Shown piece by piece: positions 26,587 to 48,285 of a stretch of DNA of 64,000 bases. Source of the stretch: Dehalococcoidia bacterium (GTDB taxonomy: Bacteria > Chloroflexota > Dehalococcoidia > SHYB01); contig OZ253453.1 in assembly GCA_965261455.1 (NCBI GenBank), positions 1,366,374-1,430,373 of the forward strand, in the 5' to 3' direction. Position 1 is the first letter of the stretch. The number at the start of each line of letters is the position of its first letter. The notes below the pieces were generated by a model that searched no databases, had not been told where the DNA came from, and was given only the letters and a program-made list of their open reading frames with translations. Both the position numbers and the translations under genes were made by a program.

Positions 26587-28557
26587 ATGCCGGCTCGACG
26601 CATCTTCTCGACGCTCAGTTTGATTCTCGGAATAGCCCTCGTCCTCGCGGCGTGCGGCACAGACTCGAACGAAACGATGCCGACCGCAGCCCCGACAGCG
26701 ACGCCGGTGGCAATGCCGACGGGGTTACCGATGGCATCGGCAGTACCGCAAAGCGGGCCATCGGGCCCCAGAGGGGCGACCGGAGCAGATGGCGTCAGCG
26801 GCCCTCAGGGAGAACAAGGCCTCCAGGGAGAACAAGGCCTCGCAGGGTCTCAAGGCAGCTCCCAGGTCACGATGGCGCCGGCGGCGGCGGGCGCCCCAAG
26901 CCCAAGGACGATGAGGGAACCGACGTCGCAGGCAATGATGCCGAAGCCAAGGGCGACAGCGATGGCGGCCCCGACGGCGACGCCGGCGCCAATGATGATG
27001 CAGCCGACGGGGGCGCCGATGGCAACGGCCGCACCACAAGCCGCGCCTTATTCGAGCGGGTCTAGCGGGGCACAAGGAGCGTCGGGACCCAGAGGCGCCC
27101 AGGGCAGCCCCGGGGCGACGACCTTCCAAGATTACCCGCGCTCGCCGGCGGTCGCGACGGCTGAAGACCGGACGTCGACCTTTAGCCTCGATACCGACCG
27201 CACGTCCTACTACCTCGCGCTCAACTGGGCCCAATCGGGCTTCGAGATTGACCCCGCTTCCGTTCGCGCCGAGGAGTGGGTCAACAGCTTCAACTACGCC
27301 TACGAACCGCCGAGCTCCGAGGACCGCTTCGCCATCTCCACCGACATCTTCAGGCATCCGCTGGACGACGGAAAGCGCCTCGCGCGCTTGGCCTTCCAGG
27401 CGCCGGATCTGCACGGAGGCGAGAGAGCGCTCAACGTGACACTCGTGCTCGACGCCTCGGGGTCCATGGGGGACGGCAACCGGGTGGCCATCGCCCGCGA
27501 GGCCGCCGAGAGCATCCGGCGAAGCCTGCGCAGCCACGACCGCATCTCCGTGGTGCACTTCACCACAAACGTTATCCATGAGTACACCGTCGGGCCGCTG
27601 CGACCGGACCACCGCGACGTGAAGTGGTCGATCGCGCAATTGGGGCCGCACGGTTCGACCAACGTGCAGGCCGGTCTCGACCTCGGCGTCCGGCTCGCCG
27701 ACCAAGCCCGCCGCGAACGCCCCGACGCGTTCAACTACGTCGTGCTGATGTCGGACGGCGTGGCGAACGTCGACGCCACCGACCCCTTCGCTATCCTGGA
27801 GTCCACCGGCGGCCGCGACGACGGGAACCCGCTGCGACTCATCACGGTGGGCGTCGGGATCAACAACTACAACGACTATCTGCTGGAGCAGCTCGCCCAG
27901 CACGGCAACGGTTGGTACCGCTACCTCAGCACCACCGCCCAGGCACGGGAGACGTTCGGCCATGGCGCCTGGCTTGCGCTCTCGCTTCCCTTCGCCGATC
28001 AGACCCGCGCCCAGGTGACCTGGGACCCCGATCTCGTCCGGTCGTGGCGCATCATCGGCTACGAGAACCGCATCACGTCCGACGAGTCGTTCACCCAAGA
28101 CCGGAAGGAGTTCGCGGAGATTCCCTCAGGCGCCGCCACCACGGTCTTCTACGAGCTCGATCTCGTGGAAGGCGTGGACGCAAGAAGCGCGGGCGGCGCG
28201 AAGCTGGGCGACATCGAACTGCGCTGGGTCACGCCGGTGAGCGAAGCGTCGGTCCGGCAGCACGCGCCGATCTGGGGCCATTGGGGCACGGACTTCGGCG
28301 CCATGGATGACGCGCGGCTGCGGCTCGGCACCATCGCGGCACTTGCCGCCGACCGCTACGGCGCGCTCCCCTATGCCGACGGCAGGTACGCGCCGGAGGT
28401 CCGCCGCGACCTCTCCGTCCTCATGGACGAGCTCCGGCGCCTGGAGCGCGACCTTGGAACGCTGGAGGCCTACCGCGACTTCGCCTTCCTGCTCGACCAC
28501 ATCGTCCACAGCCTTCCCGCCGAGTCCCGGCCGGGCGATTCGGGATACAGCCGCTAG
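26587..28557 (+). CDS. von Willebrand factor type A (vWA) domain lipoprotein with collagen-like repeats
   Basis: Lipobox LVLAAC. Two GXY runs (GPSGPRGATGADGVSGPQGEQGLQGEQGLAGSQG; GSSGAQGASGPRGAQGSPG) separated by a Met/Ala/Pro-rich tract. MIDAS motif LVLDASGSMGDG. Confidence 0.75.
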   Translation: MPARRIFSTLSLILGIALVLAACGTDSNETMPTAAPTATPVAMPTGLPMASAVPQSGPSGPRGATGADGVSGPQGEQGLQGEQGLAGSQGSSQVTMAPAAAGAPSPRTMREPTSQAMMPKPRATAMAAPTATPAPMMMQPTGAPMATAAPQAAPYSSGSSGAQGASGPRGAQGSPGATTFQDYPRSPAVATAEDRTSTFSLDTDRTSYYLALNWAQSGFEIDPASVRAEEWVNSFNYAYEPPSSEDRFAISTDIFRHPLDDGKRLARLAFQAPDLHGGERALNVTLVLDASGSMGDGNRVAIAREAAESIRRSLRSHDRISVVHFTTNVIHEYTVGPLRPDHRDVKWSIAQLGPHGSTNVQAGLDLGVRLADQARRERPDAFNYVVLMSDGVANVDATDPFAILESTGGRDDGNPLRLITVGVGINNYNDYLLEQLAQHGNGWYRYLSTTAQARETFGHGAWLALSLPFADQTRAQVTWDPDLVRSWRIIGYENRITSDESFTQDRKEFAEIPSGAATTVFYELDLVEGVDARSAGGAKLGDIELRWVTPVSEASVRQHAPIWGHWGTDFGAMDDARLRLGTIAALAADRYGALPYADGRYAPEVRRDLSVLMDELRRLERDLGTLEAYRDFAFLLDHIVHSLPAESRPGDSGYSR

Positions 28558-30660: not shown

Positions 30661-30840
30661 GCCTGCTTCCCCTTCGGCGTCTCCCCCTGGAGACCTTTGC
30701 AAAACCGACTGGGGTTCTGGCGGGGGGAGCGGAGGTGGCATTCACTTAAACCTCTCCCCTGTGGGGGAGACTGAGAGAGGGCACGCGCCGTCAGGCGCGC
30801 AGCGCCCAAGGGGCGCTCCCCCCTCCGCGGCGCAGCTACG
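30661..30840. repeat. modular intergenic hairpin repeat (modules M1+M2), one of at least 9 copies in window
   Basis: Near-identical to 40885-41062, 47703-48070 and 49725-49880. Contains CTCTCCCC-tgt-GGGGGAGA hairpin and GC hairpins. Confidence 0.8.
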
Positions 30841-33234: not shown

Positions 33235-33440
33235 AGTATACAGACCCGCGACACTCGGTCGGCGCCACCGAGGGGAGGCCTTTGCGCAACCCGCCTGTGC
33301 GCAAGCATGGGTGGGGCCGGGAGGTCTTGCCTCTTCTCCCGTGGGGAGAAGATTGAGATGAGGGGCACCCTCGCAACCGCCACGGGTTATCGAAGCCCGC
33401 CACCTTCACGGTCAGTCAGCCCGGTTACGCAAAAGCCTTG
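33235..33440. repeat. modular intergenic repeat (module M3, hairpin CTTCTCCC-gt-GGGGAGAAG)
   Basis: Copies at 47575-47640, 49440-49600, 49900-50010. Confidence 0.75.
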
Positions 33441-33442: not shown

Positions 33443-33451
33443 TGGTAGAAT
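33443..33451 (+). promoter_or_regulatory. extended -10 promoter TGGTAGAAT, 43 nt before ATG 33495
   Basis: TGn plus TAGAAT. The same element recurs at identical spacing before each tandem paralogue. Confidence 0.5.
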
Positions 33452-33494
33452 CCGGCGCAGGGCTTGGCTGGCGGCCCGATACGGGAGGGAAACT

Positions 33495-34979
33495 ATGGCG
33501 GCGGTTTCGAGCAAGTCGGCGGCGATTCGCGCAAAGCTCGATCATCCGATCATCGACTCCGACGGCCACCTCATCGAGGTGACCCCCGTGCTCTACGACT
33601 ACATCCGCGACGAGGGCGGCGAGCAGGCGCTCGCAAGATACAAGGCGGCCATAGAGCCACACTGGACGCACCTCTCGTCCGAAGAACGGCGCGACGGCCG
33701 TGTCACCGCCAATACCTGGTGGCTTGCGCCCACCAAGAACGGCCTCGACCGTGCTACGGCCATGATCCCGCGCCTCCTTTCCGAGCGCCTCGACGATCTC
33801 GGCCTCGACTTCTCCGTCCTGTACCCCTCAGCGGGCTTGCTCTACCCAAGGTGGGCCGAAGAGGACGTCCGGCGCGTCAGCTGCCGGGCTTACAACAGGT
33901 ACGTCGCCGACGCCTACGGCCCCTATTCGTCGCGACTGGCCCCGGCGGCACTCGTCCCGATGCACACCCCGGAAGAGGCCATCGAGGAGATGGAGTTCGC
34001 CGTGCGGGAGCTCGGGCTGAAGGCCGCCATGATCGCGGGCCACGTCCGCCGGCCGGTCGGCAAGGTCCAGTCGCGGCATCCCGGCGCCGTGGCGGGGTAC
34101 GGCTGGTGGTTCGACGCGTTCGGCGAGGATAGCGAGTACGACTACGACCCCGTCTGGGCCAAGGCCATCGAGCTTGGCCTCCCCCTGGCGACGCACCACG
34201 GCGGCTTCGGCTTCACCAACAACTCGAACACCAACAACTTCATGCAAAACCATCTCGGCCACTTCGCCAACGCGGCCAATCTGCTCTGCAAGTCGTTGTT
34301 CTTCAGCGGCGTCACTCACCGCTTCCCCAAGCTCCGCATGGGCTTCCTGGAATGCGGCGCGGGATGGGCCGCCGACCTCTACGGCGGCATCGTCGCCCGC
34401 TGGGAGAAGCGCAACCCCGAGGCGCTGCAACACGTCGACCCGAGACTGCTCGACGAGGACCGCGTCATGGATCTCTTCGCCGCCTACGGCGACGAGAAGG
34501 CGGTGGGCAAGCTCGAAGAGATCAAGGAGTCGCTGCGCGCGCCCAGCGTGTTCGCCGCGCAAAACGCCCCGGAGGAGCTCAACGAATTCGCCCGCGCGGG
34601 CATCACCAAGCCCGAAGACATCCGCGACCGCTTCATCCCCAACTTCTTCTTCGGCTGTGAGGCCGACGACCCCATGAACGCCTCCGCGTTCAACACCAAG
34701 ATCACCCCCTTCGGCGCGAAGATCGGGGCCATGCTCAGCTCCGACATCGGCCACTGGGACGTCCTCGACATGCGCGACGTCGTCGAGGAAGCCTACGAAA
34801 TGGTCGAGCACGGCCTCATGACCGGCGACGACTTCCGCGACTTCACCTTCAACAACCCCCTCCGCTTCTTCACCGACCTCAACCCCACCTTCTTCGACGG
34901 CACCGCCATCGAGGACGCGGCGAAGGCGGCCCTCGCCCCTCCCTCCTCCAACCTCTCCCCCGCGGGGGGAGCACCTTAA
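33495..34979 (+). CDS. Amidohydro_2-superfamily protein, tandem paralogue 1 of 4 (about 495 aa)
   Basis: IIDSDGHLIEVTPV metal-ligand N-terminus, gggaggga RBS. C-terminal tail ...PPSSNLSPAGGAP and stop lie inside the downstream hairpin repeat. Confidence 0.8.
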   Translation: MAAVSSKSAAIRAKLDHPIIDSDGHLIEVTPVLYDYIRDEGGEQALARYKAAIEPHWTHLSSEERRDGRVTANTWWLAPTKNGLDRATAMIPRLLSERLDDLGLDFSVLYPSAGLLYPRWAEEDVRRVSCRAYNRYVADAYGPYSSRLAPAALVPMHTPEEAIEEMEFAVRELGLKAAMIAGHVRRPVGKVQSRHPGAVAGYGWWFDAFGEDSEYDYDPVWAKAIELGLPLATHHGGFGFTNNSNTNNFMQNHLGHFANAANLLCKSLFFSGVTHRFPKLRMGFLECGAGWAADLYGGIVARWEKRNPEALQHVDPRLLDEDRVMDLFAAYGDEKAVGKLEEIKESLRAPSVFAAQNAPEELNEFARAGITKPEDIRDRFIPNFFFGCEADDPMNASAFNTKITPFGAKIGAMLSSDIGHWDVLDMRDVVEEAYEMVEHGLMTGDDFRDFTFNNPLRFFTDLNPTFFDGTAIEDAAKAALAPPSSNLSPAGGAP

Positions 34980-35112
34980 GCCCCCCGCAAGGGGAGCACC
35001 TTAAGTCCCCCGCAGGGGGAGCACCTTAAGCCTCTCCCCCTCTGGGGGAGACTGAGAGAGGGCGCGCGCCGCAGGCGCGCGGGTGCCCGGAGGGCGCCCC
35101 TCCCCTCCGCCG
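34952..35112. repeat. tandem 24-bp hairpin units (CCCCCGCAGGGGGAGCACCTTAAG x3) plus 3-hairpin module M2
   Basis: Directly seen. Conserved after paralogues 1-3 (3, 2 and 1 unit respectively). Confidence 0.85.
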
Positions 35113-35114
35113 GG

Positions 35115-35123
35115 TGATAGAAT
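35115..35123 (+). promoter_or_regulatory. extended -10 promoter TGATAGAAT, 44 nt before ATG 35168
   Basis: Same position relative to ATG as the other three copies. Confidence 0.5.
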
Positions 35124-35167
35124 CCGCCGCAGTAGGGGGCCAACGGCCCCGATCGGAGGCGGAAGCC

Positions 35168-36655
35168 ATGGCGGCAACATCGAGCAAGTCGGCGGCGATT
35201 CGCGCAAAGCTAGACCACCCGATCATCGACTCCGACGGCCACCTCATCGAGGTAACGCCCGTCCTGCACGACTACATCCGCGCCGAGGGCGGCGAGAGCG
35301 TCCTCCAACGGGTCAAGAAGAACGCGGATTTCGCGCACTGGACGCAGCTCTCCGCCGACGAGCGGAGCGACGCGCGAACGACCGCCATCACCTGGTGGCT
35401 CGCTCCCACCAAGAACGGCCTCGACCGGGCCACCGCCATGATCCCCCGCCTCCTCGCCGAGCGTCTTGACGACCTGGGGCTGGACTTCTGCGCGCTCTAC
35501 CCCTCGGGGGGCTTGGGCTATCCCCGGCTGCCCGACGAAGAGCTTCGCCGGGTCTGCTGCCGCGCCTACAACAAGTACGTCGCCGACACCTACGGCCCCT
35601 ATTCGTCGCGCATGACGCCCGCGGCGCTGATCCCGCTGCACAACCCCGAAGAGGGCATCGAGGAGATGGAGTTCGCCGTGCGGGAGCTCGGCCTCAAGGT
35701 CGCTATGATCGCGGGCCACGTCCGGCGCCCTATCGGCAAGGTCCGACGCGAGCACCCCGGCGCCGTGGCGGAGTACGGCTCGTGGTACGACGTCTTCGGC
35801 GAGGACAGCGAGCACGACTACGACCCCTTCTGGGCCAAGTCCATCGAGCTTGGCATGCCCCTGGCCACGCACACCGGCGGCTTCGGCTTCACCAACAATT
35901 CCAACATCAACAACTTCATGCAGAACCACCTCGGCCACTTCGCCAACGCCGGCAACCTGCTCTGCAAGTCGCTCTTCTTCAGCGGCGTCACCCGCCGCCT
36001 CCCCAAGCTCCGCATGGCCTTCCTGGAGTGCGGCGCGGGATGGGCCGCCGACCTCTACGCCGGCATCATCGCCCGCTGGGAGAAACGAAACCCCGAGGCG
36101 CTGCAAAACGTCGACCCCCGGCACCTCGACGAGGACCGCATCATGGATCTCTTCGCCGCCTACGGCGACGAGAAGGCGGTGGGCAAGCTCGAAGAAATCA
36201 AGGAGTCGCTGCGCTCGCCGAGCATGTTCGCCACCCACAACGCGCCGGAGGAACTCAACGACTTCGCCCGCGCCGGTATCACCAAGCCCGAAGATGTCCG
36301 CGACCGCTTCATCCCCAACTTCTTCTTCGGTTGCGAGGCCGACGACCCCATGAACGCCGCCGCGTTCAACACCAAGATCACCCCCTTCGGCGCGAAGGTC
36401 GGCGCAATGCTCAGTTCCGACATCGGCCACTGGGACGTCCTCGACATGCGCGACGTCGTCGACGAGGCCTACGAACTGGTCGAGGACGGCCTCATGACCG
36501 GCGACGACTTCCGCGACTTCACCTTCAACAACCCCCTCCGCTTCTTCACCGACCTCAACCCCGCCTTCTTCGACGGCACCGCCATCGAGGACGCGGCCAA
36601 GGCGGCCCTCGCCCCTCCCTCCTCCAACCTCTCCCCCGCGGGGGGAGCACCTTAA
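35168..36655 (+). CDS. Amidohydro_2-superfamily protein, tandem paralogue 2 of 4
   Basis: About 85% identical to paralogue 1 by eye. ggaggcggaag RBS. Confidence 0.8.
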   Translation: MAATSSKSAAIRAKLDHPIIDSDGHLIEVTPVLHDYIRAEGGESVLQRVKKNADFAHWTQLSADERSDARTTAITWWLAPTKNGLDRATAMIPRLLAERLDDLGLDFCALYPSGGLGYPRLPDEELRRVCCRAYNKYVADTYGPYSSRMTPAALIPLHNPEEGIEEMEFAVRELGLKVAMIAGHVRRPIGKVRREHPGAVAEYGSWYDVFGEDSEHDYDPFWAKSIELGMPLATHTGGFGFTNNSNINNFMQNHLGHFANAGNLLCKSLFFSGVTRRLPKLRMAFLECGAGWAADLYAGIIARWEKRNPEALQNVDPRHLDEDRIMDLFAAYGDEKAVGKLEEIKESLRSPSMFATHNAPEELNDFARAGITKPEDVRDRFIPNFFFGCEADDPMNAAAFNTKITPFGAKVGAMLSSDIGHWDVLDMRDVVDEAYELVEDGLMTGDDFRDFTFNNPLRFFTDLNPAFFDGTAIEDAAKAALAPPSSNLSPAGGAP

Positions 36656-36764
36656 GTCCCCCGCAGGGGGAGCACCTTAAGCCTCTCCCCCTCTGGGGGA
36701 GACTGAGAGAGGGCGCGCGCCGCAGGCACGCGGGTGCCCGGAGGGCGCCCCTCCCCTCCGCCGG
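36628..36764. repeat. 24-bp hairpin units x2 plus module M2
   Basis: Near-identical to 34952-35112. Confidence 0.85.
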
Positions 36765-36765
36765 G

Positions 36766-36774
36766 TGGTAGAAT
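36766..36774 (+). promoter_or_regulatory. extended -10 promoter TGGTAGAAT, 44 nt before ATG 36819
   Basis: Conserved spacing. Confidence 0.5.
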
Positions 36775-36818
36775 CCGGCGCAGTACGGGGCCAACGGCCC
36801 CGATCGGAGGCGGAAGCC

Positions 36819-38303
36819 ATGGCGGCAACATCGAGCAAGTCGGCGGAGATTCGCGCGAAGCTGACGCACCCGATCATCGACTCGGACGGCCACCTCATCG
36901 AGGTGACGCCGGTGCTCTACGACTACATCCGCGCCGAGGGCGGCGAGCAGGTGCTGGAGCGGTTCAAGGCCCAGGGAGGGCCGCACTGGACGCAGGTATC
37001 GCTCGACCAGCGCCGCGACGCGCGGATGACCGCGAGCACCTGGTGGCTCGTCCCCACCAAGAACGGCCTCGACCGCGCCACGGCGATGATCCCCCGCCTT
37101 CTCGCCGAGCGCCTCGACGAGCTCGGTCTGGACTTCTGCGTGCTCTATCCCTCGACGGCGCTGCCCTTCCCGAGCCTCGCCGACGAGGAGCTCCGCCGCG
37201 TCTGCTGTCGGGCGTACAACAAGTACGCCGCCGAAATGTACGCCCCCTACGCGCGGCAGATGACTCCCGCGGCGCTGATCCCGATGCACACGCCCGAGGA
37301 GGGGATCGAGGAGCTGGAGTTCGCCTCGCGGGAGCTTGGCCTGAAGGTGGCCGCGATGGCGGGCTACGTCCGCCGGCCCATCAAGAAGTTGCAGCGCGAG
37401 TTCCCAGGGGCGTCGGGACAGTTCAGCGTCTGGCACGACGTCTACGGCGAGGACAGCGAGTACGACTACGACCCCTTCTGGGCCAAGGCCATCGAGCTTG
37501 GCATGCCGTTGTCGACGCATTCGGCGGGCTTCGGCTTCACCAACAACTCCAACATCAACAACTTCATGCAGAACCACCTCGGCCACTTCGCCAACGCCGC
37601 CAACGTGCTCTGCAAGTCGATGTTCTTTAGCGGCGTGACCCGCCGCTTCCCCGCGCTCCGCATGGCCTTCCTCGAGTGCGGTGCGGGCTGGGCCGCCGAC
37701 CTCTACGCCGGCATCATCGCCCGCTGGGAGAAGCGCAACCCCGAGACCCTGCAGGGCGTCGACCCGAGCCTCATGGACGAGGACCGGATCATGGAGCTCT
37801 TCGCGGCCTACGGCGACGCGCGCGCGGTGAGCAAGCTCGAAGAAATCAAGGAGTCGTTAGTCGGGACCGGAGTCCTCGCCGGGCGGAACGCGCCGGAAGA
37901 CCTCAACGACTTCTCCCGGTCCGGCGTAACCAAGCCGGAAGACATCCGCGACCAGTTCGTCCCCAACTTCTTCTTCGGCTGCGAGGCCGACGACCCCATG
38001 AACGCCATCGCGTTCGACTCCAAGATCGCTCCCCTCCGCGCGCGCGTCGGAGCCATGCTCAGCTCCGACATCGGCCACTGGGACGTCATCGACATGCGCG
38101 ACGTAGTCGAGGAAGCCTACGAGCTGGTGGAGGACGGCGTGATGACCGCCGACGACTTCCGCGACTTCACCTTCGCCAACCCCCTCCGCTTCTTCACCGA
38201 CCTCAACCCCGCCTTCTTCGACGGCACCGTCATCGAAGCCGAGGCCAAGGCGGCCCTCGCCCCTCCCTCCTCCAACCTCTCCCCCGCAGGGGGAGCACCT
38301 TAA
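36819..38303 (+). CDS. Amidohydro_2-superfamily protein, tandem paralogue 3 of 4
   Basis: MAATSSKSAEIRAKLTHPIIDSDGHLIEVTPV.... Confidence 0.8.
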   Translation: MAATSSKSAEIRAKLTHPIIDSDGHLIEVTPVLYDYIRAEGGEQVLERFKAQGGPHWTQVSLDQRRDARMTASTWWLVPTKNGLDRATAMIPRLLAERLDELGLDFCVLYPSTALPFPSLADEELRRVCCRAYNKYAAEMYAPYARQMTPAALIPMHTPEEGIEELEFASRELGLKVAAMAGYVRRPIKKLQREFPGASGQFSVWHDVYGEDSEYDYDPFWAKAIELGMPLSTHSAGFGFTNNSNINNFMQNHLGHFANAANVLCKSMFFSGVTRRFPALRMAFLECGAGWAADLYAGIIARWEKRNPETLQGVDPSLMDEDRIMELFAAYGDARAVSKLEEIKESLVGTGVLAGRNAPEDLNDFSRSGVTKPEDIRDQFVPNFFFGCEADDPMNAIAFDSKIAPLRARVGAMLSSDIGHWDVIDMRDVVEEAYELVEDGVMTADDFRDFTFANPLRFFTDLNPAFFDGTVIEAEAKAALAPPSSNLSPAGGAP

Positions 38304-38387
38304 GCCTCTCCCCCTCTGGGGGAGACTGAGAGAGGGCGCGCGCCGCAGGCGCGCGGGTGCCCGGAGGGCGCCCCTCCCCTCCGCCGG
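38266..38387. repeat. 24-bp hairpin unit x1 plus module M2
   Basis: Near-identical to the preceding two intergenic modules. Confidence 0.85.
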
Positions 38388-38388
38388 G

Positions 38389-38397
38389 TGGTAGAAT
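38389..38397 (+). promoter_or_regulatory. extended -10 promoter TGGTAGAAT, 44 nt before ATG 38442
   Basis: Conserved spacing. Confidence 0.5.
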
Positions 38398-38441
38398 CCG
38401 GCGCAGTACGGGGCCAACGGCCCCGATCGGAGGCGGAAGCC

Positions 38442-39899
38442 ATGGCGGCGGCTTCGAGCAAATCGGCGGCGATTCGCGCAAAGCTGACGCATCCGATCAT
38501 CGATGCGGACGGCCACCTCATCGAGGTCACGCCGGTGCTCTACGACTATGTCCGCGCCGAGGGCGGCGAGGGAGTGGTCCGGCGGCTCAAGGCGGAGATT
38601 GAGCAGTCTCACTGGACGCGGCTCTCGCCCGGCGAACGGCGCGGCGCGCGGGTGCCCGCCATCACGTGGTGGCTTGTCCCCGCCAAGAACGGTCTCGACC
38701 GGGCGACGGCAATGATCCCCCGCCTTCTCGCCGAGCGTCTCGACGGTCTCGGTCTCGACTTCTGCGTCCTCTACCCCTCGCTAGGGCTGGACTTCCCCCA
38801 TCTGGCCGACGAGGAGCTCCGGCGGGTCTCCTGCCGGGCCTACAACAAGTACGTCGCCGAGATGTACGCCCCCTATGCGCGGCAAATGACGACGGCTGCG
38901 GTGATTCCGATGCACACCCCCGAAGAGGGGATCGAGGAGCTTGAGTTCGCCTCGCGGACGCTTGGCCTGAAGACCGCCATGATCGCGGGCCACGTCCACC
39001 GCCCCATCGGCGAGGCCCGGCGCGAGCATCTGGGGGCGATTGGGCAATACGGCCCTCAGCGCGGCTCGTGGTACGACACCTTCGGCGAGGACAGCGAGTA
39101 CGACTACGATCCCTTCTGGGCCAAGGCCGTCGAGCTAGGGATGCCTCTGGCGGCGCACTCGTCCGGTTTTGGGTTCACCAACAACTCCAACGTCAACAAT
39201 TTCATGCAGAACCACCTCGGCCACTTCGCCAATGCGGCCAACCTACTGTGCAAGTCGCTGTTCTTTAGTGGAGTAACCCATCGCTTCCCCGCGCTCCGCA
39301 TCGCCTTCCTGGAATGTGGAGCGGGTTGGGCCGCCGACCTCTACGCCGGCATCATCGCCCGCTGGGAGAAGCGCAACCCCGAGGCCCTGCAAGGCATCGA
39401 CCCTCGCCAGCTTGACGAGGACCGTGTCATGGAGCTTTTCGCGGCCTACGGCGACGAGAAGACCGCGGGCAGGGTCGAAGAGATCAAGGCGTCGCTTCGT
39501 TCGCCGAGCCTGTTCGCCGCGCAGAACGCGCCCGATGATCTCAACGACTTCTCCCGGTCCGGCATCACGAAGCCGGAGGACATCCACGACCGCTTCGTCC
39601 CCAACTTCTTCTTCGGCTGCGAGGCCGACGACCCCATGAACGCCGTCGCCTTCGACTCCAAGATCGCCCCGTTCGGCGCGCGCGTCGGCGCAATGCTCAG
39701 CTCCGACATCGGCCACTGGGACGTCATCGACATGCGTGACGTAGTCGAGGAAGCCTACGAGATGGTCGAGCACGGCCTCATGACCGCCGACGACTTCCGC
39801 GACTTCACCTTCGCCAACCCCCTCCGCTTCTTCACCGACCTCAACCCCGCCTTCTTCGACGGCACCGTCATCGAAGCCGAGGCCAAGGCCGCGCGGTAA
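38442..39899 (+). CDS. Amidohydro_2-superfamily protein, tandem paralogue 4 of 4 (lacks the repeat-encoded C-terminal tail)
   Basis: MAAASSKSAAIRAKLTHPIIDADGHLIEVTPV.... Ends ...AEAKAAR. Confidence 0.8.
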   Translation: MAAASSKSAAIRAKLTHPIIDADGHLIEVTPVLYDYVRAEGGEGVVRRLKAEIEQSHWTRLSPGERRGARVPAITWWLVPAKNGLDRATAMIPRLLAERLDGLGLDFCVLYPSLGLDFPHLADEELRRVSCRAYNKYVAEMYAPYARQMTTAAVIPMHTPEEGIEELEFASRTLGLKTAMIAGHVHRPIGEARREHLGAIGQYGPQRGSWYDTFGEDSEYDYDPFWAKAVELGMPLAAHSSGFGFTNNSNVNNFMQNHLGHFANAANLLCKSLFFSGVTHRFPALRIAFLECGAGWAADLYAGIIARWEKRNPEALQGIDPRQLDEDRVMELFAAYGDEKTAGRVEEIKASLRSPSLFAAQNAPDDLNDFSRSGITKPEDIHDRFVPNFFFGCEADDPMNAVAFDSKIAPFGARVGAMLSSDIGHWDVIDMRDVVEEAYEMVEHGLMTADDFRDFTFANPLRFFTDLNPAFFDGTVIEAEAKAAR

Positions 39900-39935
39900 G
39901 CAAGGCCACCGCACAACCGTGCCGACCCTCTCGTA

Positions 39936-39957
39936 GGGGCGAGTCGCGACTCGCCCT
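39936..39957. terminator. bidirectional hairpin terminator candidate between convergent genes (GGGCGAGTC-gc-GACTCGCCC)
   Basis: 9-bp perfect stem located between the stop at 39899 (+) and the stop at 39967 (-). Confidence 0.45.
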
Positions 39958-40806: not shown

Positions 40807-40884
40807 AGCATCCCTCCGCAATCGCATTGCTCCAGACCGCCCCTATGCTATAGTCAGCCCGCAACCCCTTCAAGAAGCCGGCGC

Positions 40885-41091: not shown

Positions 41092-42243
41092 ATGCACTAC
41101 GAAGTCATCTCGACCGACGACCACCTGCAGGAATCTTCGACGGTGTGGACCGACCGCATGTCGAAGAGCAAGTGGGGCGGCAAGGTCCCCCACATACGTG
41201 AAGTCGAGGGCGGCAACGAGCGGTGGCACATCTGGGACATCCCGATGCAGCGGAGCCTGGGCACCGTGCAAGGCGCCGTCGCCGGTGAGTTCCCCGACGG
41301 ACTCGGCCCCGACCGCTGGGAGGACATGCCCAGGAAGACCTACGTCCCCACGGAGCGCCTCAAGGCGATGGAAGAGGACGGCGTCGACGTCCACACGTTC
41401 TTCAGCAACATCGCCGGCGTCGCCGGGCAGACGTTCAGCAACCCCATCTATGCGGACGTCGACTTCCGCATGGAGTGCATCCGCGCCTACAACGATTGGC
41501 AGATCGAAGAATGGGCCGATCCCTACCCCGGACGCTTCATCACCATCGCGCTCGTGCCGCTGTGGGACGCCGAGCTCGCCGCCGCCGAAGTCCGCCGGAT
41601 GCACGAGCGCGGCGTGAAGGCGATCTCCTTCTCCTTCCCCCAGCAGTTCAACTATCCCCACATCTCCGACCCATTCTGGGACCCGTTCTGGCAGGCGGCG
41701 CAGGACGCCGGCCTGTCGGTCAACCTCCACATCGGCTCGGGCGGCAGCATCGGCATCATCAACGAAAGCTGGAGCGGACGGGGCCGCATGGTGCAGGTCG
41801 CCGACGGCAGCACCAAGGGGCTGGCGTCGAACATCCAGGTGATGAGCACCCTCCTCTACTCCGGCATCTTCGACCGCTTCCCCACCCTCAAATTCGTCTC
41901 ATCGGAAAGCGGCCTGGGGTGGGCGCCCTATCTGCTGGAGACCGCCGACCACCAGTGGGAGTCGCAGCGCCTCTACAAGCACGGCATGCCCACCAAGCCG
42001 AGCGAGCTCTTCCACCGCCAGTGTTACATCAACTTCTGGTATGAAGAGACCGGCATCGCCCTCCGCCACGCCATCGGCATCGACAACATCATGTGGGAGT
42101 CCGACTTCCCCCACCCCACCGGCTCCTACCCCAACTCGCGCGCCTACATCGAGCGCACCCTCGCCGGCGTTCCCGAGGACGAGCGGCGCAAGATGCTCGT
42201 CGAGAACGCCATCCGCGTCTTCAACCTCGACGCGCAAGCCTAG
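41092..42243 (+). CDS. Amidohydro_2 family protein
   Basis: ISTDDHLQESSTVW N-terminal motif. ATG 41092 preferred over TTG 41077. Confidence 0.8.
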   Translation: MHYEVISTDDHLQESSTVWTDRMSKSKWGGKVPHIREVEGGNERWHIWDIPMQRSLGTVQGAVAGEFPDGLGPDRWEDMPRKTYVPTERLKAMEEDGVDVHTFFSNIAGVAGQTFSNPIYADVDFRMECIRAYNDWQIEEWADPYPGRFITIALVPLWDAELAAAEVRRMHERGVKAISFSFPQQFNYPHISDPFWDPFWQAAQDAGLSVNLHIGSGGSIGIINESWSGRGRMVQVADGSTKGLASNIQVMSTLLYSGIFDRFPTLKFVSSESGLGWAPYLLETADHQWESQRLYKHGMPTKPSELFHRQCYINFWYEETGIALRHAIGIDNIMWESDFPHPTGSYPNSRAYIERTLAGVPEDERRKMLVENAIRVFNLDAQA

Positions 42244-42336: not shown

Positions 42337-43356
42337 CTAAACGGCTGGGGCGGCCCAGTCGGCCAAGGCCTGGAGATCATGCGCCCAGAAGAGTATCAAT
42401 CCTTGCTTTTGGGCGGCCTGGAGATTGTGCACTTTGTAGACGCCGCTCAACACCGCGACTGGTACGATCTGACGTTCGCCGAACTCACGGAGCCACACTT
42501 CGGCCTTCGCAGCCGCGTCGTTGTTCAGCCTCTTAACTGAGTTGGTTGACGAATTCGACACCTTGCACTCGATCGCCACCAGACGGCTGTCCCGCAGAGT
42601 CACGACAAAGTCCGCCTTTCGGCTCCCAAGCAGGCTTTCGCCACAGAACTCACCCGGTCTCGGCGCGTTCGACATCGTTGTGATCGTCCTCTGCTCGACC
42701 TGAGTGAATCCATTGGAAGAAAAAAGCTCCCCAACCTTCTTCTCCTGCGCTTCCTTCCCCTCGCTGCGCCTCTTGGTCGCCGCGCGGCTCGCGGCGATGA
42801 GCGCCGCCGACGCCAAGACCGCGCCTTCCCGCTCAGGCCCAGTTGGGCCGCGGCCCTCAGACACCCAAGCGAAACGGCGGCGATCTAGCGCCTGAAGCAC
42901 TACCTCGACGATTCGCTGTGCGAGGTCTGGGTCTTCGCGAAGACGCTTCGCGGAGAGAGAACCTTCTACGAGGACTTTCAAGTCGTCCACGGAAATCGGC
43001 GGGCCCGCGAGATAGCGGACCGCATCCAACAAGTGTTCGTCGGTGAGAACTTGGACAGCTTGCTCTTGAAGCTCCGCGAGGTCGTCCGTTGTCTCCAGCA
43101 GTGTTTTGATGTGCTTTTCGTACGCATCAAACGCTTGGAGGTAGCCCTCCAACGACTCGTCTAGGCGCTCCGTGCGGAATTGCTCTATGGCGAGGAGCCG
43201 GTCGCGCTCTAACTCCTCAGCACTCCAGCGGGGCGGGCTCTGCCGGCTAACCAACCGTAACAACTCCAGAAGCCAGCATCTCGGGAGCCGGAACGAGGAC
43301 TCGCTCCATCTCTTTCGGCTCGAACTTGACGAGCCCGCCGGCGTAGGTCCGTCCAT
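42337..43356 (-). CDS. type II restriction endonuclease candidate (PD-(D/E)xK fold), partner of adjacent MTase
   Basis: RKADFVVTLRDSRLVAIECKVSNSS fits D...(E/D)xK. Overlaps the 3' end of the MTase gene. AT-rich codons (tta, ata, aaa). Start uncertain (43374/43356, or TTG near 43240). Confidence 0.55.
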   Translation of the reverse strand: MDGPTPAGSSSSSRKRWSESSFRLPRCWLLELLRLVSRQSPPRWSAEELERDRLLAIEQFRTERLDESLEGYLQAFDAYEKHIKTLLETTDDLAELQEQAVQVLTDEHLLDAVRYLAGPPISVDDLKVLVEGSLSAKRLREDPDLAQRIVEVVLQALDRRRFAWVSEGRGPTGPEREGAVLASAALIAASRAATKRRSEGKEAQEKKVGELFSSNGFTQVEQRTITTMSNAPRPGEFCGESLLGSRKADFVVTLRDSRLVAIECKVSNSSTNSVKRLNNDAAAKAEVWLREFGERQIVPVAVLSGVYKVHNLQAAQKQGLILFWAHDLQALADWAAPAV

Positions 43357-44971
43357 CGCTGAGACGCACCTCATTCGACAGGTAGTCGCGGAGCGTTTCC
43401 AAGGCGAGCGGCGACAGGGGCTCCCTCGGATATATTCCGTGCGCGATGTTGAGAAGCCGCGCCCCGATGGGATTCAGGGCAAAGGCCGGCGGGCGCCTCG
43501 CCATATAGGTAGCGACGATCGGCGCGGGAGGGCGCAAGTTCACCGCCCACCAGCACTTCCGGTTCTTCGCCACGTAGCCTTCGTGAGCGCCCAAGAGTCG
43601 GGCAACGTGCAGGAATCGTTCGACGGACTTTCGGTCCTCTGTATCAAGGACATCAAGGCCCTCCGGCAGATCAATTACGTACCGGAGGCGCGCCGCATCC
43701 GTCAATACCCCCGACGAGTCGATGATTTCTCTGGCCCTCGTAACGGTGGGGGTGAGGACCCTCGCCGGAAGGCCCTGACTGTGGGCTCCCGCTATCCAAA
43801 CGCGGTTGCTCCCCGTCACAGACCCCCTATGTACACGGCACAACTCGCCAAGCTCGACAAAACCGGCGGGTGCCGCCCGGCGCTTCCCAGGCAGATTGCT
43901 CCAGCGCCTTTCAGTTGCTAGCTGCTCCCGGGGAACGGGATGGCCAGTCTCTAGGTTGCCAAGGTCGTCAATGGTGCCGACCTTTCGGAACCTCACATGC
44001 TCGGAAGGGCTCCCCACCTTGAACGTGGTAATGACGCCCGTTGTGGCTGCGTCGGGAAACGGCTGCGCGGCAGGGTCTACGATCGTGAGCGTCTGCGCGT
44101 GCAAAGACCTGACCAACAGGTCTCGCACGAGCCGTCCATAGTTGACGTCGAGCCACTCCGCCGCGGTAACGAATACGCCATAGTCGCCAGGCTGCGCTTT
44201 TAGTAACGTCGAGAGGAAGAAGTGTGCGTGCAGTCCAGCTAGCTGGCTCGCTCGGAAATCCCGCGCGTCTGCCTCGCGCGTAAGCCATTCCTTCCACTGC
44301 GAATCGATTAGGTGATGCCTAACGTACGGAGGGTTGCCGACAAACAACGTCGGCCCGTCGGCTAGAGGAATCTCAACGCTCCTGTAGTCCTCGACGAGGA
44401 CACTGCTTCGCTGCGAGAAGCCGGCGAGGGCCAGATTGGCGCGGGACACCATGGCGGCCAAGGGATCCACCTCGACGCCGACGAGGTCCGCCTTCGGGAA
44501 GGCGCTACCGGCGGCTAGCAGGAAGCGGCCGGACCCGGCGCCGACATCTACGACGCGATCCGGCGGGCCGTGTCGCCGCCCCCAAGCGATCATCGCTTCG
44601 ACAATCGGCCATGGCGTATAGGTGGCCCCCAACTTGCGGCGCTCGGCGCGGCTCCGGACGATAGCGAAGGCTGCACCCAATGGATCACCGCCCGCAAGCA
44701 CGCGGCGGCGCACTTCGTTCAACTCCGGTGCGGATGGCCGCCACTGCGAGGCAGCCAAGAACGGCGACTCATGCGCTCCGGCGGCAAGGGCGGCCGTTAT
44801 TGCTAGGCGCTCCTCGGTCGCCGCGCAACTCAGCGCGCTTTCCAGACCTTCCGAGGCCGACGCCTCAGCAGTGGACCTCCAGGATTCGAGCGGCGTAAGA
44901 AGGGGCGGACGAAAGACGCCAGTCGCCAAAGCCGAGCGATCGGATTCGGTTGCCGCTGTGAGCCTCGCCAT
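43247..44971 (-). CDS. gamma-class N6-adenine DNA methyltransferase (Eco57I/TaqI-like N6_Mtase with C-terminal target-recognition region)
   Basis: Motif I VVDVGAGSGRFLL and motif IV LFVGNPPYVRH in gamma order. 574 aa. Confidence 0.8.
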   Translation of the reverse strand: MARLTAATESDRSALATGVFRPPLLTPLESWRSTAEASASEGLESALSCAATEERLAITAALAAGAHESPFLAASQWRPSAPELNEVRRRVLAGGDPLGAAFAIVRSRAERRKLGATYTPWPIVEAMIAWGRRHGPPDRVVDVGAGSGRFLLAAGSAFPKADLVGVEVDPLAAMVSRANLALAGFSQRSSVLVEDYRSVEIPLADGPTLFVGNPPYVRHHLIDSQWKEWLTREADARDFRASQLAGLHAHFFLSTLLKAQPGDYGVFVTAAEWLDVNYGRLVRDLLVRSLHAQTLTIVDPAAQPFPDAATTGVITTFKVGSPSEHVRFRKVGTIDDLGNLETGHPVPREQLATERRWSNLPGKRRAAPAGFVELGELCRVHRGSVTGSNRVWIAGAHSQGLPARVLTPTVTRAREIIDSSGVLTDAARLRYVIDLPEGLDVLDTEDRKSVERFLHVARLLGAHEGYVAKNRKCWWAVNLRPPAPIVATYMARRPPAFALNPIGARLLNIAHGIYPREPLSPLALETLRDYLSNEVRLSDGRTYAGGLVKFEPKEMERVLVPAPEMLASGVVTVG

Positions 44972-45131: not shown

Positions 45132-46271
45132 CTACGCGCTGATGCCGTACAGCCCCGCGGCGTTGTCGTGGAGGATCGCGCGGCGCTCGTCAGCGGCGAC
45201 GTCGGCGTAGTTCTTTTCCAGCGTCTTCGCGGAGTCGGGGAAGGTCGAGCTCTCCAGGGGAAACTCGGAGTACCACATCACGTTCTTGGCCCCGATGACG
45301 TACAGCAGCTTCAGGCCCACCTGGTCGAACGACGTTGTCACGAAGCCCTGGCGATGGAAGATCTCGCTGGGCGCGGTCTTCATCTCGACGTTCTCGCTCT
45401 TCAGGCAGATGCGCTCCCACTCGTGATCGGACACTTCGAGCATGAACGCGAACCAATCGATGCCGGTGGCGCTAAACACGAACTTCACGTCCGGGTGGCG
45501 CTCGCCGACGCCGGAGAAGAGGAAGCGGCAGACGATCATGCCGCTGCTCGAAGGACGGCGCACCACGTCGAACGCCTTGGCCACGGCGGGGTCGAAGCCC
45601 TCGTAGATATGCATCATCAGACTCGGCACGCTGCCCGAGTGGAAGCAGACCGGTACGTCGAGGTCGCCAATCTGCTTCCAGAACAGGTCCCAGTCGGGGT
45701 CGTAGAGGTGCGGCGTGCCGTCGTTGATACGCCACGGAGCCGCGGGGAGAACGATCCCCTTATGACCAGCCTTCACGGCCTTGACCGCGCCCGCCCTCGC
45801 CGCCTCGATTGAGCTGATCGGCACCAGCGCCTGCGGGACGAGGCGGTCGCTGCTCCATGTCTCCAGGAGCCAATCGTTATAGGCGTCGACGCAGGCGGCT
45901 TGGAGCTCGGGGTCTTTGATCGCACCGAGAATCTCGCCGCCGAGGCCCGCGATGTAGGGGTAGAGCACGGCGGCGGCGATGCCGTCCTCGTCCATGGCCT
46001 TCAGGCGCTCGGCGGGATCGTAGCTCGCCGCGGGGACCTGGTCCCACGTCTCGATGTCGAGGTACCGGTCGCCGTTAGAGATAGCGCGGGCGCGGGAGAC
46101 GGGCCACTCGGCCAGGACTTCGCCATCGACCAGCCAGCGGTCACGGCCGTCGGATTGGCGCTCAATGCGGGGGCCGCGCTCCGCCAGGCTCTTGGGCAAG
46201 CGCGACATCCAGAGGTCGGGCGGCTCCTGCACGTGGTCGTCTGAGGAGATGATCGGGAAGTCGAGAGCCAT
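45132..46271 (-). CDS. Amidohydro_2 family protein
   Basis: ISSDDHVQEPPDLW N-terminal motif, 379 aa. Confidence 0.8.
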   Translation of the reverse strand: MALDFPIISSDDHVQEPPDLWMSRLPKSLAERGPRIERQSDGRDRWLVDGEVLAEWPVSRARAISNGDRYLDIETWDQVPAASYDPAERLKAMDEDGIAAAVLYPYIAGLGGEILGAIKDPELQAACVDAYNDWLLETWSSDRLVPQALVPISSIEAARAGAVKAVKAGHKGIVLPAAPWRINDGTPHLYDPDWDLFWKQIGDLDVPVCFHSGSVPSLMMHIYEGFDPAVAKAFDVVRRPSSSGMIVCRFLFSGVGERHPDVKFVFSATGIDWFAFMLEVSDHEWERICLKSENVEMKTAPSEIFHRQGFVTTSFDQVGLKLLYVIGAKNVMWYSEFPLESSTFPDSAKTLEKNYADVAADERRAILHDNAAGLYGISA

Positions 46272-46306: not shown

Positions 46307-47437
46307 TTAGTTGAGCTTGAAGACCTTCTTAGGGTTCTCCACCAGTATCTGGTACTGCTCCTCCTCCGGCACGTTCTGGAACGCCTTGGCCACGAACTCG
46401 TTGGTGTTGGGCCACAGGGAGGTCGGATGGGGGAAGTCGGTCTCCCACATGATCCGGTCGACGCCGATGACGTGGCGGTAGTGTTCCACCGCCGAGCGCT
46501 CGTACCAGAAGTCGACGTAGCAATGCTGCTTGAAGAGGTCGGTGGGACGGGTGGGCAGGCCCTTGTTCCACAACTGGCCCTGCTCCCAAGCGTAATCGCA
46601 GGATTCGAGGAGCCAGGGGAGCCAGCCGATGCCGGTCTCGGCAGCGACCAGGGTGAGCGTGGGGTAGCGGTCGAAGACGCCCGCGAACAGGAAGTTGGCG
46701 AAGTACTGGGGCTGGATGCTGAAGCCCGAGGCGGCGAGCGCGGCGTCGTTGCGGCGATGCTCCTGCGTGGCGTGCTTCTCAATGCGCATGCTCTGCGGGG
46801 CCGCGCCCGAGCCGTGGACGGTGAGCACGAGGTCGAGATCGACGACCGTCTGCCACAGCGGCTCCCAGTAGGGCGAGCTGTAGTTTTCCAGCCCGCGGGT
46901 GTGCGGCGTCCCCACCAGCATCACACCGCGGTGCCCGTTCTTCGCGTTGTGATGGACCTCTTCCAGCGTCTTCTCCATCGAGTAGTAGACAGGGACGGTG
47001 AGGGCCACGAACCGGTTGGGGTTGACGTTGACCCACTCCTCGGTCTGGTAGTCGTTATACACGCGGACGCACGCGGCCTCGAACTCGGGGTCGAGGCCCT
47101 GGAAGCGGTCACCCGAGACGCCCGTCGTGTTGGCGTACATGACCTGGCAGTCGGTGCCCTCGGAGTCCATCGCCTTCATGCGTTCCTCAGCGACGTACAC
47201 GGACGGGGGGATCATGTCCCACCGGTTCGGGTTGGTGACGCGGTCGGGCATGACGGCGGGGCACGTCGAGAGATAGCCCGTCGGCTTGCCATCCACCCAC
47301 CACTCATCACGCTCGGCACTCTGGCGGATGTGGGGGATGCGGTCGCCCCATTTCTCTTTCGACATGCGGCTGGTCCAGGTGTTGGGTTTTTCCTGAATAT
47401 GCGAATCGACGTCGATCCTGCGATAGGGATAGCCCAC
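46307..47437 (-). CDS. Amidohydro_2 family protein
   Basis: IDVDSHIQEKPNTW motif. GTG 47437 with AGGAGG 8 nt upstream. The track's upstream extension to 47692 runs into the repeat element. Confidence 0.75.
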   Translation of the reverse strand: MGYPYRRIDVDSHIQEKPNTWTSRMSKEKWGDRIPHIRQSAERDEWWVDGKPTGYLSTCPAVMPDRVTNPNRWDMIPPSVYVAEERMKAMDSEGTDCQVMYANTTGVSGDRFQGLDPEFEAACVRVYNDYQTEEWVNVNPNRFVALTVPVYYSMEKTLEEVHHNAKNGHRGVMLVGTPHTRGLENYSSPYWEPLWQTVVDLDLVLTVHGSGAAPQSMRIEKHATQEHRRNDAALAASGFSIQPQYFANFLFAGVFDRYPTLTLVAAETGIGWLPWLLESCDYAWEQGQLWNKGLPTRPTDLFKQHCYVDFWYERSAVEHYRHVIGVDRIMWETDFPHPTSLWPNTNEFVAKAFQNVPEEEQYQILVENPKKVFKLN

Positions 47438-48255: not shown

Positions 48256-48285
48256 CGAAAGAGCAGAGAAAGCAAGACTCCCTTG

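Follow-up and report, generated by a model that had tools for sequence, protein, structure and literature searches.

Recent copying of a promoter cassette within an old array of four Amidohydro_2 paralogues as the likely source of its near-identical spacers in a Dehalococcoidia bacterium

Gene conversion homogenises tandem or duplicated genes in bacteria, for example tuf and rrn, and such non-reciprocal copying makes segments more alike than the age of the duplication allows. Modular intergenic repeats are known as well: BOX elements of Streptococcus pneumoniae and the mycobacterial interspersed repetitive unit-variable number tandem repeats (MIRU-VNTRs) of Mycobacterium contain variable internal units (boxB and MIRU, respectively), lie between genes within operons and vary in copy number between strains, and MIRU units can overlap flanking stop or start codons. 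Repetitive extragenic palindromes (REPs), bacterial interspersed mosaic elements (BIMEs), GTAG-REPs and REPINs, found in E. coli, Pseudomonas and others, are short, GC-rich hairpins scattered in many copies that form mosaic clusters and lie for the most part between genes that are unidirectional or convergent (Di Nocera et al. 2013, PMC3733652; PMC3116915). REPs abut or overlap the ends of open reading frames (ORFs) and can provide their stop codons, and a GTAG-REP is a short palindrome with a stem of 5-13 bp, a short loop and an unpaired GTAG at one end (PMC3733652). Here, we analysed a 64,000-nt stretch of a Dehalococcoidia bacterium (assembly GCA_965261455.1, contig OZ253453.1, positions 1,366,374 to 1,430,373; hereafter the window), in which four Amidohydro_2 (PF04909) paralogues, P1 to P4, are separated by repeat-laden spacers. 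We consider it likely that this is an ancient, conserved four-paralogue array with a native promoter layer and an invading REP-like layer, whose spacers were homogenised by conversion within the array. As in the concerted evolution of tuf and rrn, segments would have become more alike than the age of the duplication allows, but here the converted tract would be non-coding (hairpins on the terminator side, promoter and leader), the coding bodies remaining diverged, and one event would have turned an operonic junction into a promoter-bearing one. Unlike REPs and BIMEs, the REP-laden spacer appears fused to a native promoter and spread by conversion within one array, and not demonstrably by transposition. 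It has no sequence relationship with BOX or MIRU-VNTRs, its unit being 25 nt long, present in one to three copies and tied to one paralogue array in the data examined.

The genes of the array are listed below, L078 and L079 being the two closest relatives.

33495..34979, + strand: P1, 494 aa, PF04909; the 3′ end (12 aa and stop) is repeat-derived
35168..36655, + strand: P2, 495 aa, PF04909; 85% amino-acid identity to P1; repeat-encoded tail
36819..38303, + strand: P3, 494 aa, PF04909; orthologues in L078 and L079 have 480 aa and end in ...AKAAR*
38442..39899, + strand: P4, 485 aa, PF04909; native C-terminus ...AKAAR*

All four ORFs were intact and arranged head-to-tail, and they scored 41.7-52.9 bits against the PF04909 hidden Markov model (gathering score 26.4 bits), in agreement with a preliminary description of this DNA made from the sequence alone. 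Its figure of 80-90% identity between the paralogues had to be lowered, as we measured 76-85% at the protein level, with 82-88% between the coding sequences (CDSs) at the nucleotide level. Synonymous divergence (dS) between paralogues was 0.33-0.47 and the ratio of nonsynonymous to synonymous divergence (dN/dS) was 0.25-0.35 (Nei-Gojobori), the divergence being concentrated around residues 40-80, 180-220 and 340-360. The same description had proposed that a 24-bp hairpin repeat encodes the stop codon and a tail of about 10 residues in the first three paralogues and that the fourth lacks this tail. Both proposals stood, with a measured period of 25 nt: the repeat supplies the stop codon and the final 12 residues (PSSNLSPAGGAP*) of P1-P3, which are disordered in the structure model, and P4 ends in its own residues.

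The internal spacers IG1, IG2 and IG3 are 188, 163 and 138 nt long, and their sole difference in length is the presence of three, two and one copies of the 25-nt unit, the first unit of every run holding the stop codon. The units are followed by module M2, an 8-bp GC hairpin, module D, a -10 element, a leader hairpin and the ribosome-binding site (RBS), in this order. The features in and around the spacers are as follows.

33290..33438, + strand: repeat modules upstream of the P1 promoter; more copies at 49460-49608 and 49858-50006
33443..33451, + strand: TGGTAGAAT, extended -10-like, 43 nt 5′ of the P1 ATG; kept before the P1 orthologues of all relatives
34957..35031, + strand: three tandem 25-nt units (CCCCCGCRRGGGGAGCACCTTAAGY), the first carrying the P1 stop codon TAA
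35031..35063, + strand: M2 in IG1, CCTCTCCCCC-tct-GGGGGAGA plus CTGAGAGAGGGC; member of a dispersed family
35062..35114, + strand: GC hairpin CGCGCGCC-gca-GGCGCGCG and module D (GGAGGG-cgc-CCCTCC), between M2 and the -10 element
35115..35123, + strand: TGATAGAAT before P2; identical variant in L078 and L079
35136..35150, + strand: leader hairpin GGGGCC-aac-GGCCCC before P2, of the P3 type
36633..36682, + strand: two tandem 25-nt units, the first carrying the P2 stop codon
36682..36714, + strand: M2 in IG2
36713-36765 and 38336-38388: further copies of the GC hairpin and module D, the same pair as in IG1
36766..36774, + strand: TGGTAGAAT before P3
36787..36801, + strand: leader hairpin before P3, apparently ancestral to the P3 orthologues
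38281..38305, + strand: one 25-nt unit, carrying the P3 stop codon
38305..38337, + strand: M2 in IG3
38389..38397, + strand: TGGTAGAAT before P4; absent at the equivalent position in the relatives L078, L079, L003, L005 and L002
38410..38424, + strand: leader hairpin before P4, probably copied from IG2
39932..39956, no strand assigned: GTAG-tagged REP-like palindrome CGTAG-GGGCGAGTCG/CGACTCGCCC, between the convergent P4 and short-chain dehydrogenase/reductase (SDR) genes; kept in L078 and L079

When aligned, the spacers were 98-99.5% identical to one another, well above the CDSs, and this pairwise comparison upholds the earlier statement that the non-coding modules are better conserved than the ORFs, as the spacer lengths do for the 3, 2 and 1 unit copies followed by M2. 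Two further statements, that M2 lies upstream of each paralogue and that each 5′ untranslated region contains the GGGGCC-aac-GGCCCC hairpin, hold for P2-P4 but fail for P1, which is preceded by other repeat modules and has a leader that is not more structured than its shuffles. A GGAGG RBS was found 6-8 nt 5′ of each ATG of P1-P4, as had been predicted. A variant (GCGGGGGG) and a T where the units join are common to the IG1 and IG2 units of the window, so the two-unit state probably arose once and was shared before IG1 obtained its third unit.

Relatives were found by scanning one genome per species, and the window falls in the Dehalococcoidia. An exact look-up of P1 in public assemblies returned no record, and the 97%-identical P0001 and P0003 stood in for it. 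Four tandem copies were present in L001 (a 1.46-Mb contig), L003, L005 (the 2.79-Mb chromosome OZ242299.1), L078 and L079; L002, a short contig, has three, and L004 has three full-length copies in mixed orientation plus fragmentary matches. L078 and L079 are two long ENA contigs whose CDSs are 96-98% identical to those of the window at the nucleotide level and whose neighbouring genes match it, a luciferase-like monooxygenase gene lying upstream and the genes for an SDR and a fifth Amidohydro_2 protein lying downstream. A neighbour-joining tree resolved four orthologue groups with one gene per genome and conserved gene order, so that one-to-one orthologues stand in the same order in L001, L003, L005, L078 and L079 and partly in L002 and L004. 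The window and its L079 or L001 orthologues are 93-98% identical in DNA, with a ratio of nonsynonymous to synonymous differences (pN/pS) of about 0.06-0.16, indicating that all four genes are maintained under purifying selection. The more distant relatives retain the array with quite different spacers.

These arrays bear on two explanations of the copy number. The preliminary description favoured amplification by unequal crossing-over through the repeats, in which the repeats would have caused a recent increase in copy number, and the head-to-tail repeats flanking every unit, the near-identity of the spacers and the graded 3/2/1 units would fit such a process. Yet the array predates the repeats: at least five species-level genomes have the four orthologue groups in one and the same order, the paralogues are separated by the dS given above, the arrays of L003 and L005 have unrelated spacers and only 18 nt between P3 and P4, and the closest relatives are without the IG3 cassette. 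Assembly expansion, which that description had named as a possible refutation, would mean that collapse or expansion of repeats created the four copies or the 3/2/1 units. Near-identical 138-nt spacers can confuse short-read assemblers, and L078 shows probable long-read errors, its P2 orthologue (L078:11632-13281) being called as 549 aa with a frameshifted end and its IG1 carrying 8 inserted nt (caccttaa); at 11x coverage, both are probably errors of the consensus and not biology. The CDSs differ by 12-18% and are easily placed, the unit arrays of 25-75 nt are far shorter than a read, and the same gene order is found in the chromosome, the 1.46-Mb contig and the two long ENA contigs. Because orthologous four-gene arrays exist in relatives, we regard recent amplification and assembly expansion as ruled out for the gene number; taken as whole explanations, crossing-over keeps a very slight chance, and an assembly artefact is hardly credible at all.

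Comparison with the relatives indicates how the spacers became alike. In L079, IG1 and IG2 consist of one 138-nt cassette each with a single 25-nt unit, while IG3 is 33 nt long (ccgagacggcgcgcccaagcgaaggcggtatcc), lacks a -10 element and follows a P3 of 480 aa; the spacers of L078 are the same, bar the probable long-read errors, and the P3-P4 gap is 18 nt in L003, L005 and L002. IG3 of the window is identical to IG2 of L079 at 138 of 138 positions. The replaced tract starts in GC(C/G)AAGGCGGC at the end of P3 and stops at the RBS/ATGGCGGC of P4, and the bodies of P3 and P4 are still orthologous to their L079 counterparts, which argues for a short-patch conversion from IG2 to IG3 and not for a crossover. 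The TGGTAGAAT before P4 was presumably acquired with the copied cassette, given its absence from this position in the five relatives named in the feature list. A further transfer is suggested by the leaders: among L001-L005 the P3-type hairpin occurs only before P3 orthologues, and the P2 orthologues of L001, L003, L004 and L005 keep a different leader type, while in the window, L078 and L079 the leader of P2 is of the P3 type. The earlier claim that each paralogue has its own cloned module therefore applies to P2-P4 of the window genome but not to its closest relatives, in which P4 has no cassette and follows P3 after 33 nt.

L001 took another route. An IS5-like transposase lies between P3 and P4 in this genome, and P4 is preceded by module D and TGATAGAAT, the latter 29 nt before the ATG, joined to the old 33-nt spacer tail. 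As this fusion differs from the cassette of the window, P4 probably gained a -10 element twice independently. The transposase ORF (L001:13070-14743; 357 aa, MHQQTGLPTFVDAFVPEGLG...) is flanked by repeat modules. We conclude from these sequence comparisons that the near-identity of the spacers is most simply read as the product of recent intra-array gene conversion.

The cassette also changes slowly between genomes. Between the window and L079, orthologous cassettes show 0-1 differences in 138 nt, and between the window and L001 they show 5 in 138 nt, while the proportion of synonymous differences (pS) is 0.06-0.12 and 0.08-0.20, respectively, so that the cassette changes 3-10 times slower than synonymous sites at orthologous loci. 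Of the five differences from L001, two lie in the M2 loop and two form a compensatory pair. Given that conversion within a genome cannot by itself slow divergence between genomes, the slow change points to selection. Could selection have done everything, the cassette being ancestral to the three spacers and kept identical by purifying selection without conversion? The slow change of the cassette would agree with this, but IG3 is a 33- or 18-nt gap in L078, L079, L003, L005 and L002, the P2 leader differs in type in four relatives, and in L001 a GTAG-REP replaces the 25-nt unit. Selection without conversion is thereby contradicted for IG3 and the IG1 leader and is very improbable overall, and within the preferred reading, that of conversion in an old array, selection remains a contributing factor.

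The promoter-like element appears to be native to the genes. TGRTAGAAT had four matches in the window against 0.21 expected, each 43-44 nt 5′ of an ATG, which confirms the constant spacing of TG-n-TAGAAT previously noticed, the P2 copy being TGATAGAAT. At all four sites a TGn lies directly 5′ of a TAnAAT-like hexamer, as in a sigma-70 extended -10 promoter, a type that can dispense with a -35 element. Moreover, in 7 genomes TGGTAGAAT(CC) is retained at a distance of 29-46 nt 5′ of the ATG in the P1, P2 and P3 orthologues, although the 5′ flanks differ wholly between genomes, and more distant homologues have TGCTACAAT, TGATATAGT or TATACT at the equivalent position. This conservation has the form of a phylogenetic footprint of an extended -10 promoter that, judging by the alignments, belongs to the genes and is not derived from the repeats. 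The literature offered nothing usable on Dehalococcoidia amidohydrolase paralogues or Dehalococcoides promoters.

RNA folding gave a mixed picture. The P3 leader has a GC stem of 5-7 bp in all six orthologues, with loops of 3 or 4 nt; that of L001 contains one compensatory change from G-C to A-U, and the other relatives have a stem of 5-6 bp with a 4-nt loop. The whole cassette folded far more stably than its shuffles (z = -4.4 to -4.8), the predicted fold nesting the arms of the 25-nt unit and M2 into a single long stem, and the hairpin stack begins 3-6 nt 3′ of the stop codon. Stop-proximal REP hairpins of E. coli reportedly lower translation, an effect that Liang, Rudd and Deutscher are said to have described in 2015 for REPs near stop codons; for the array this is a lead only. 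An Rfam scan of 30-51 kb (E<=1) found nothing near a gathering score, and a riboswitch or known RNA leader was rejected for this reason. The best matches were Whalefall-1 on M2 (20-24 bits, threshold 37) and mir-188 (25.6 bits, threshold 72). The sub-threshold Whalefall-1 matches fall on the M2 copies at 30750-30782, 35030-35063, 36681-36714 and 38304-38337; they do not amount to membership, and Whalefall-1 and M2 are alike in being short GC hairpins known from metagenomes. The P2 leader hairpin is preceded by GTAG (GTAGGGGGCC...; 35132-35150), a variant that L078 and L079 have as well, whereas GTAC precedes the P3 copy (36783-36801) and the P4 copy. The leader hairpin thus formally resembles a small GTAG-tagged palindrome and, on its sequence, may be REP-derived.

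The other components of the spacers belong to a dispersed family. Outside the array, exact or near-exact M2 copies start at 40971, 48001 and 49814 of the window and degenerate ones at 30751, 48198 and 49629, giving at least 8 copies in the window; M2 also occupies 7 sites in L001 and occurs on both strands in L003-L005. It was further found in 8 contigs of the unrelated metagenome LXNJ01, at different loci, usually with a hairpin like the 25-nt unit on its 5′ side and varied GC hairpins on its 3′ side, and never with TAGAAT. Variants of the M2 stem are often compensatory (TTTCCCCC/GGGGGAAA, TCTCTCCC/GGGAGAGA and TCCCTCCC/GGGAGGGA); an alternative outer pairing of CCTCTC with GAGAGG did not surpass shuffles or slid controls and was dropped. 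M2 and the 25-nt unit are thus dispersed intergenic hairpins with mosaic clusters and compensatory stems, as REPs and BIMEs are, and they carry no GTAG or CGTC tag. The palindrome at 39932-39956, which the preliminary description took for a bidirectional terminator, is perfect but has no T-run; it has the form of a GTAG-REP, a short palindrome with an unpaired GTAG at one end. It is the one clear GTAG-REP copy in the window; L002 and L006 (loci of 2.6-5 kb) have 4-5 copies and L001 has 4, three of which give the TAG stop codon and last residues (...EIPPLP*) of P1, P2 and P4. No REP-associated tyrosine transposase (RAYT) was seen among the window ORFs scanned, no search aimed at RAYTs having been made. 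Our reading of these repeats is that the invading layer is a REP/BIME-like mosaic family of this Dehalococcoidia lineage, which would document a modular family of this kind in uncultured soil Dehalococcoidia.

Two kinds of larger repeat share these modules. A 75-nt unit, composed of a 'GGAGACCTTTGCAAAACCGACTGGGG...' module and an M2-like hairpin, is repeated five times in tandem at 47640-48014 (96% matches), in the divergent gap between an Amidohydro_2 gene (46307-47692, - strand) and a Zn-dependent alcohol dehydrogenase gene (48058-49374, + strand), and occurs as single copies at 30689, 40908 and 49751. The module of about 150 nt upstream of P1 (…GAGAAGATTGAGATGAGGGGC…GGTTATCGAAGCCCGCC…GGTTACGCAAA) is also present in L001, L002, L005 and L006. 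Two of its copies lie within 49375-50100, and the region of 49.4-51.7 kb contains no ORF passing the coding filter.

Such dispersal raises the question whether the cassette is itself a mobile composite element, similar to a miniature inverted-repeat transposable element or a REPIN, that carries an outward promoter and inserts upstream of genes. M2 and hairpins like the 25-nt unit are dispersed and form composites at unrelated loci, and P4 gained a -10-bearing piece independently in L001 and the window. But the array is the only place where TGGTAGAAT, the leader, the GC hairpin and module D were found, and the M2 copies at other loci do not have them alongside; the -10 element is kept in orthologues whose flanks have no M2; and at the IG3 junctions donor and recipient are homologous in sequence, with neither a target duplication nor terminal inverted repeats. 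Module D with the -10 element had 0 matches in an exact scan of JGI metagenomes, a weak argument as the lineage may be missing there. We consider a mobile promoter of this kind improbable. Integron gene cassettes, in which unrelated promoterless ORFs each precede an attC site near an IntI integrase and vary in order, were rejected, the ORFs here being paralogous and in a fixed orthologous order and the spacers carrying promoters; no integrase was found among the neighbours scanned in the window or in the gene tables of L078 and L079.

On the preferred reading of conversion within an old array, the native layer would comprise the extended -10 without a -35 (TGnTAGAAT), a leader that is about 36 nt long and holds a GC stem-loop, and the GGAGG RBS, all homologous across paralogues and orthologues. 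The invading layer would comprise the dispersed 25-nt unit, M2, the GC hairpin and the GTAG-REP after P4, having overrun the 3′ ends of ORFs whose stop codons it now gives. Short-patch conversion would then repeatedly copy the IG2-type cassette, with the ends of the CDSs (...AAGGCGGC and RBS/ATGGCGGC...) serving as homology arms. A first event would have copied the leader into IG1 in the ancestor of the window genome, L078 and L079; a second, in the window genome only, would have copied the whole 138-nt cassette into IG3 in place of the 33-nt operonic gap, extending P3 by 14 aa and giving P4 its own TGGTAGAAT promoter. Slippage may have raised the 25-nt unit from one copy to two and three. In function, the stacked hairpins after the stop codon may delimit or shield the 3′ end of the preceding message and lessen read-through, transcription would restart from the -10 element, the 5′ stem-loop may stabilise the new message, and the RBS would serve the next gene. 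Each paralogue would thus be its own transcription unit, and the copying into IG3 would have split a co-transcribed P3-P4 pair into two.

Several observations weigh against parts of this reading. The directions of conversion are read by outgroup parsimony from few genomes. Homogenisation toward a multi-copy consensus, or recombination at the strain level, could contribute to the slow change of the cassette; the earlier suggestion of selection on the regulatory module is consistent with the measured slowness and is partly supported. Consensus scans revealed no -35-like hexamer, in line with the preliminary description, and no two-hexamer promoter in the spacers, and no intrinsic terminator (GC hairpin and T-run) was found in any spacer or after P4; the three weak matches of the terminator scan all fell inside the coding regions of P1 and P2, and shuffles averaged 4.5. 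The leader hairpin alone was indistinguishable from shuffles (z about -1), and P1 has none. Covariation gives modest support for the M2 stem, with 94% of stem cells paired and 3 double-change cells, which 10 of 500 shuffles equalled. Finally, the roles given to the promoter, the leader hairpin and the terminator or insulator are deduced from sequence patterns.

The array is an old one, and what it presents is ordinary genome dynamics resolved in unusual detail: the finding is real but mostly ordinary, and no general principle is changed by it. If the reading is correct, it offers a clean, dated case of non-coding concerted evolution, in which a promoter cassette is copied between the gaps of an old array, turns an operonic junction into a transcription unit of its own and lengthens a protein by a disordered tail. 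Each of these points is a concrete experimental lead.

We further studied which enzymes the array may encode. Sequence searches returned only 'amidohydrolase family' names and weak PDB matches, NCBIfam had no family for P1 or P4, and all 120 listed homologues were already annotated as PF04909; as previously stated, no database name or solved close relative gives a substrate. The structure model (predicted local distance difference test score, pLDDT, of 89, with a disordered tail) has the (beta/alpha)8 TIM-barrel fold of solved PF04909 members. Its closest solved folds are those of PtmU3, AibH2, SfbO and DitZ, members of the ARO superfamily (PMC7782822, PMC10401708, PMC13154177), with which it shares the PF04909 barrel. 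Two motifs define AROs, D-x-H on strand 1 and, after strand 8, D-x-P-H-x-[D/E], and these enzymes use two metals (Fe2 or Mn/Fe) in O2-dependent oxidation (PMC13154177); the ligands of AibH2 are Asp25, His27, His211, Glu265, Asp337 and His340, with Asp342 in the second sphere (PMC7782822).

The ligand-like residues of P1 are D23-G-H25, H234, E286 and D417-I-G-H420-W-D422, and all of them, together with G419, were invariant in 45 homologues (P1-P4 plus 41, down to 50% identity). D23-G24-H25 lies within strand 20-26 of the model and agrees with the D-x-H of AROs. H234 comes after strand 231-233 and E286 after strand 282-285; in alignment they match the His and Glu of AibH1, and they are equivalent to His211 and Glu265 of AibH2. 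Thus, the paralogues resemble AROs in having D-x-H on strand 1, His after strand 5, Glu after strand 6 and Asp...His-x-Asp after strand 8. They differ in that the last motif reads S-S-D417-I-G419-H420-W-D422, with the three ligand positions present and an invariant Gly in place of the ARO Pro, and in being about 140 aa longer with helical insertions; their E-values to AROs were no better than to ACMSD. By motif, therefore, P1-P4 fall outside the AROs in the strict sense, and their predicted ligand set is ARO-like. The published motif filter would miss this branch of about 490 aa for its Gly.

The neighbouring genes encode an acyl-CoA dehydrogenase, two enoyl-CoA hydratases, an SDR, a luciferase-like monooxygenase and a Zn-dependent alcohol dehydrogenase, to which the relatives add thiolase-like and DUF35 genes; by annotation, this neighbourhood fits catabolism of CoA-activated or alicyclic compounds. 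An adjacent Rieske ferredoxin gene is typical of the Mn-type ARO subgroup and not of the diiron subgroup (PMC13154177). No Rieske protein was found among the 18 window neighbours scanned with Pfam or in the L078 and L079 gene tables, which speaks against an oxygenase role. The divergent segments of the paralogues fall in or near the helical insertions of the model, which suggests a diversified substrate range. P1-P4 are most likely dinuclear-metal oxygenase-like proteins whose substrate range diversified in lid insertions, and the analysis flags a widespread uncharacterised PF04909 branch with the ligand set of the newly defined dinuclear oxygenases, which also provide its nearest folds.

A wider proposal joins enzymes and spacers, and we offer it tentatively, as rather unlikely in its entirety. 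On this proposal the D-x-H/D-x-G-H-x-D proteins of about 490 aa would form an extensive sister branch, so far unrecognised, of the amidohydrolase-fold dinuclear (Fe2 or Mn/Fe) oxygenases that activate O2, with thousands of sequences in Dehalococcoidia, Binatia and others. The array would be an expansion of substrate range for oxidising recalcitrant alicyclic or CoA-activated compounds, and the spacer a selected, portable unit of stop-hairpins, promoter and leader that makes operonic genes separately transcribed, gained twice by P4 (in the window, and in L001 after the insertion of the insertion sequence).

Four further PF04909 genes lie in the window, at 6266-7429 (+), 41092-42243 (+), 45132-46271 (-) and 46307-47692 (-), so that the 64 kb hold eight in all. 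Canonical ARO motifs, D-T-H and D-F-P-H-A-E, are present in the gene at 6266-7429, and the genes starting at 41092 and 46307 have D-F-P-H-P-T. An extended -10-like TGCTATAGT at 40846-40854 adjoins the start of the divergent SDR gene, about 240 nt before the fifth Amidohydro_2 gene; a transcript from it would have a leader full of repeat modules, including the M2 at 40971. A XamI-type restriction endonuclease (PF09572, E 2e-39) and an Eco57I/MTS-type methyltransferase are encoded at 42337-44971 (-), with a lower GC content at third codon positions (GC3). At this site L078 and L079 have thiolase-like, DUF35 and SBP_bac_5 genes, and the restriction-modification locus looks like a strain-specific insertion or replacement. 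Lastly, collagen-like 9/18-nt repeats (GGACCGGCGGGCCCAGCG, Gly-X-Y) were found at 7543-7732, 11199-11290 and 26557-28557, and a VWA-domain protein also matches the Collagen Pfam family.

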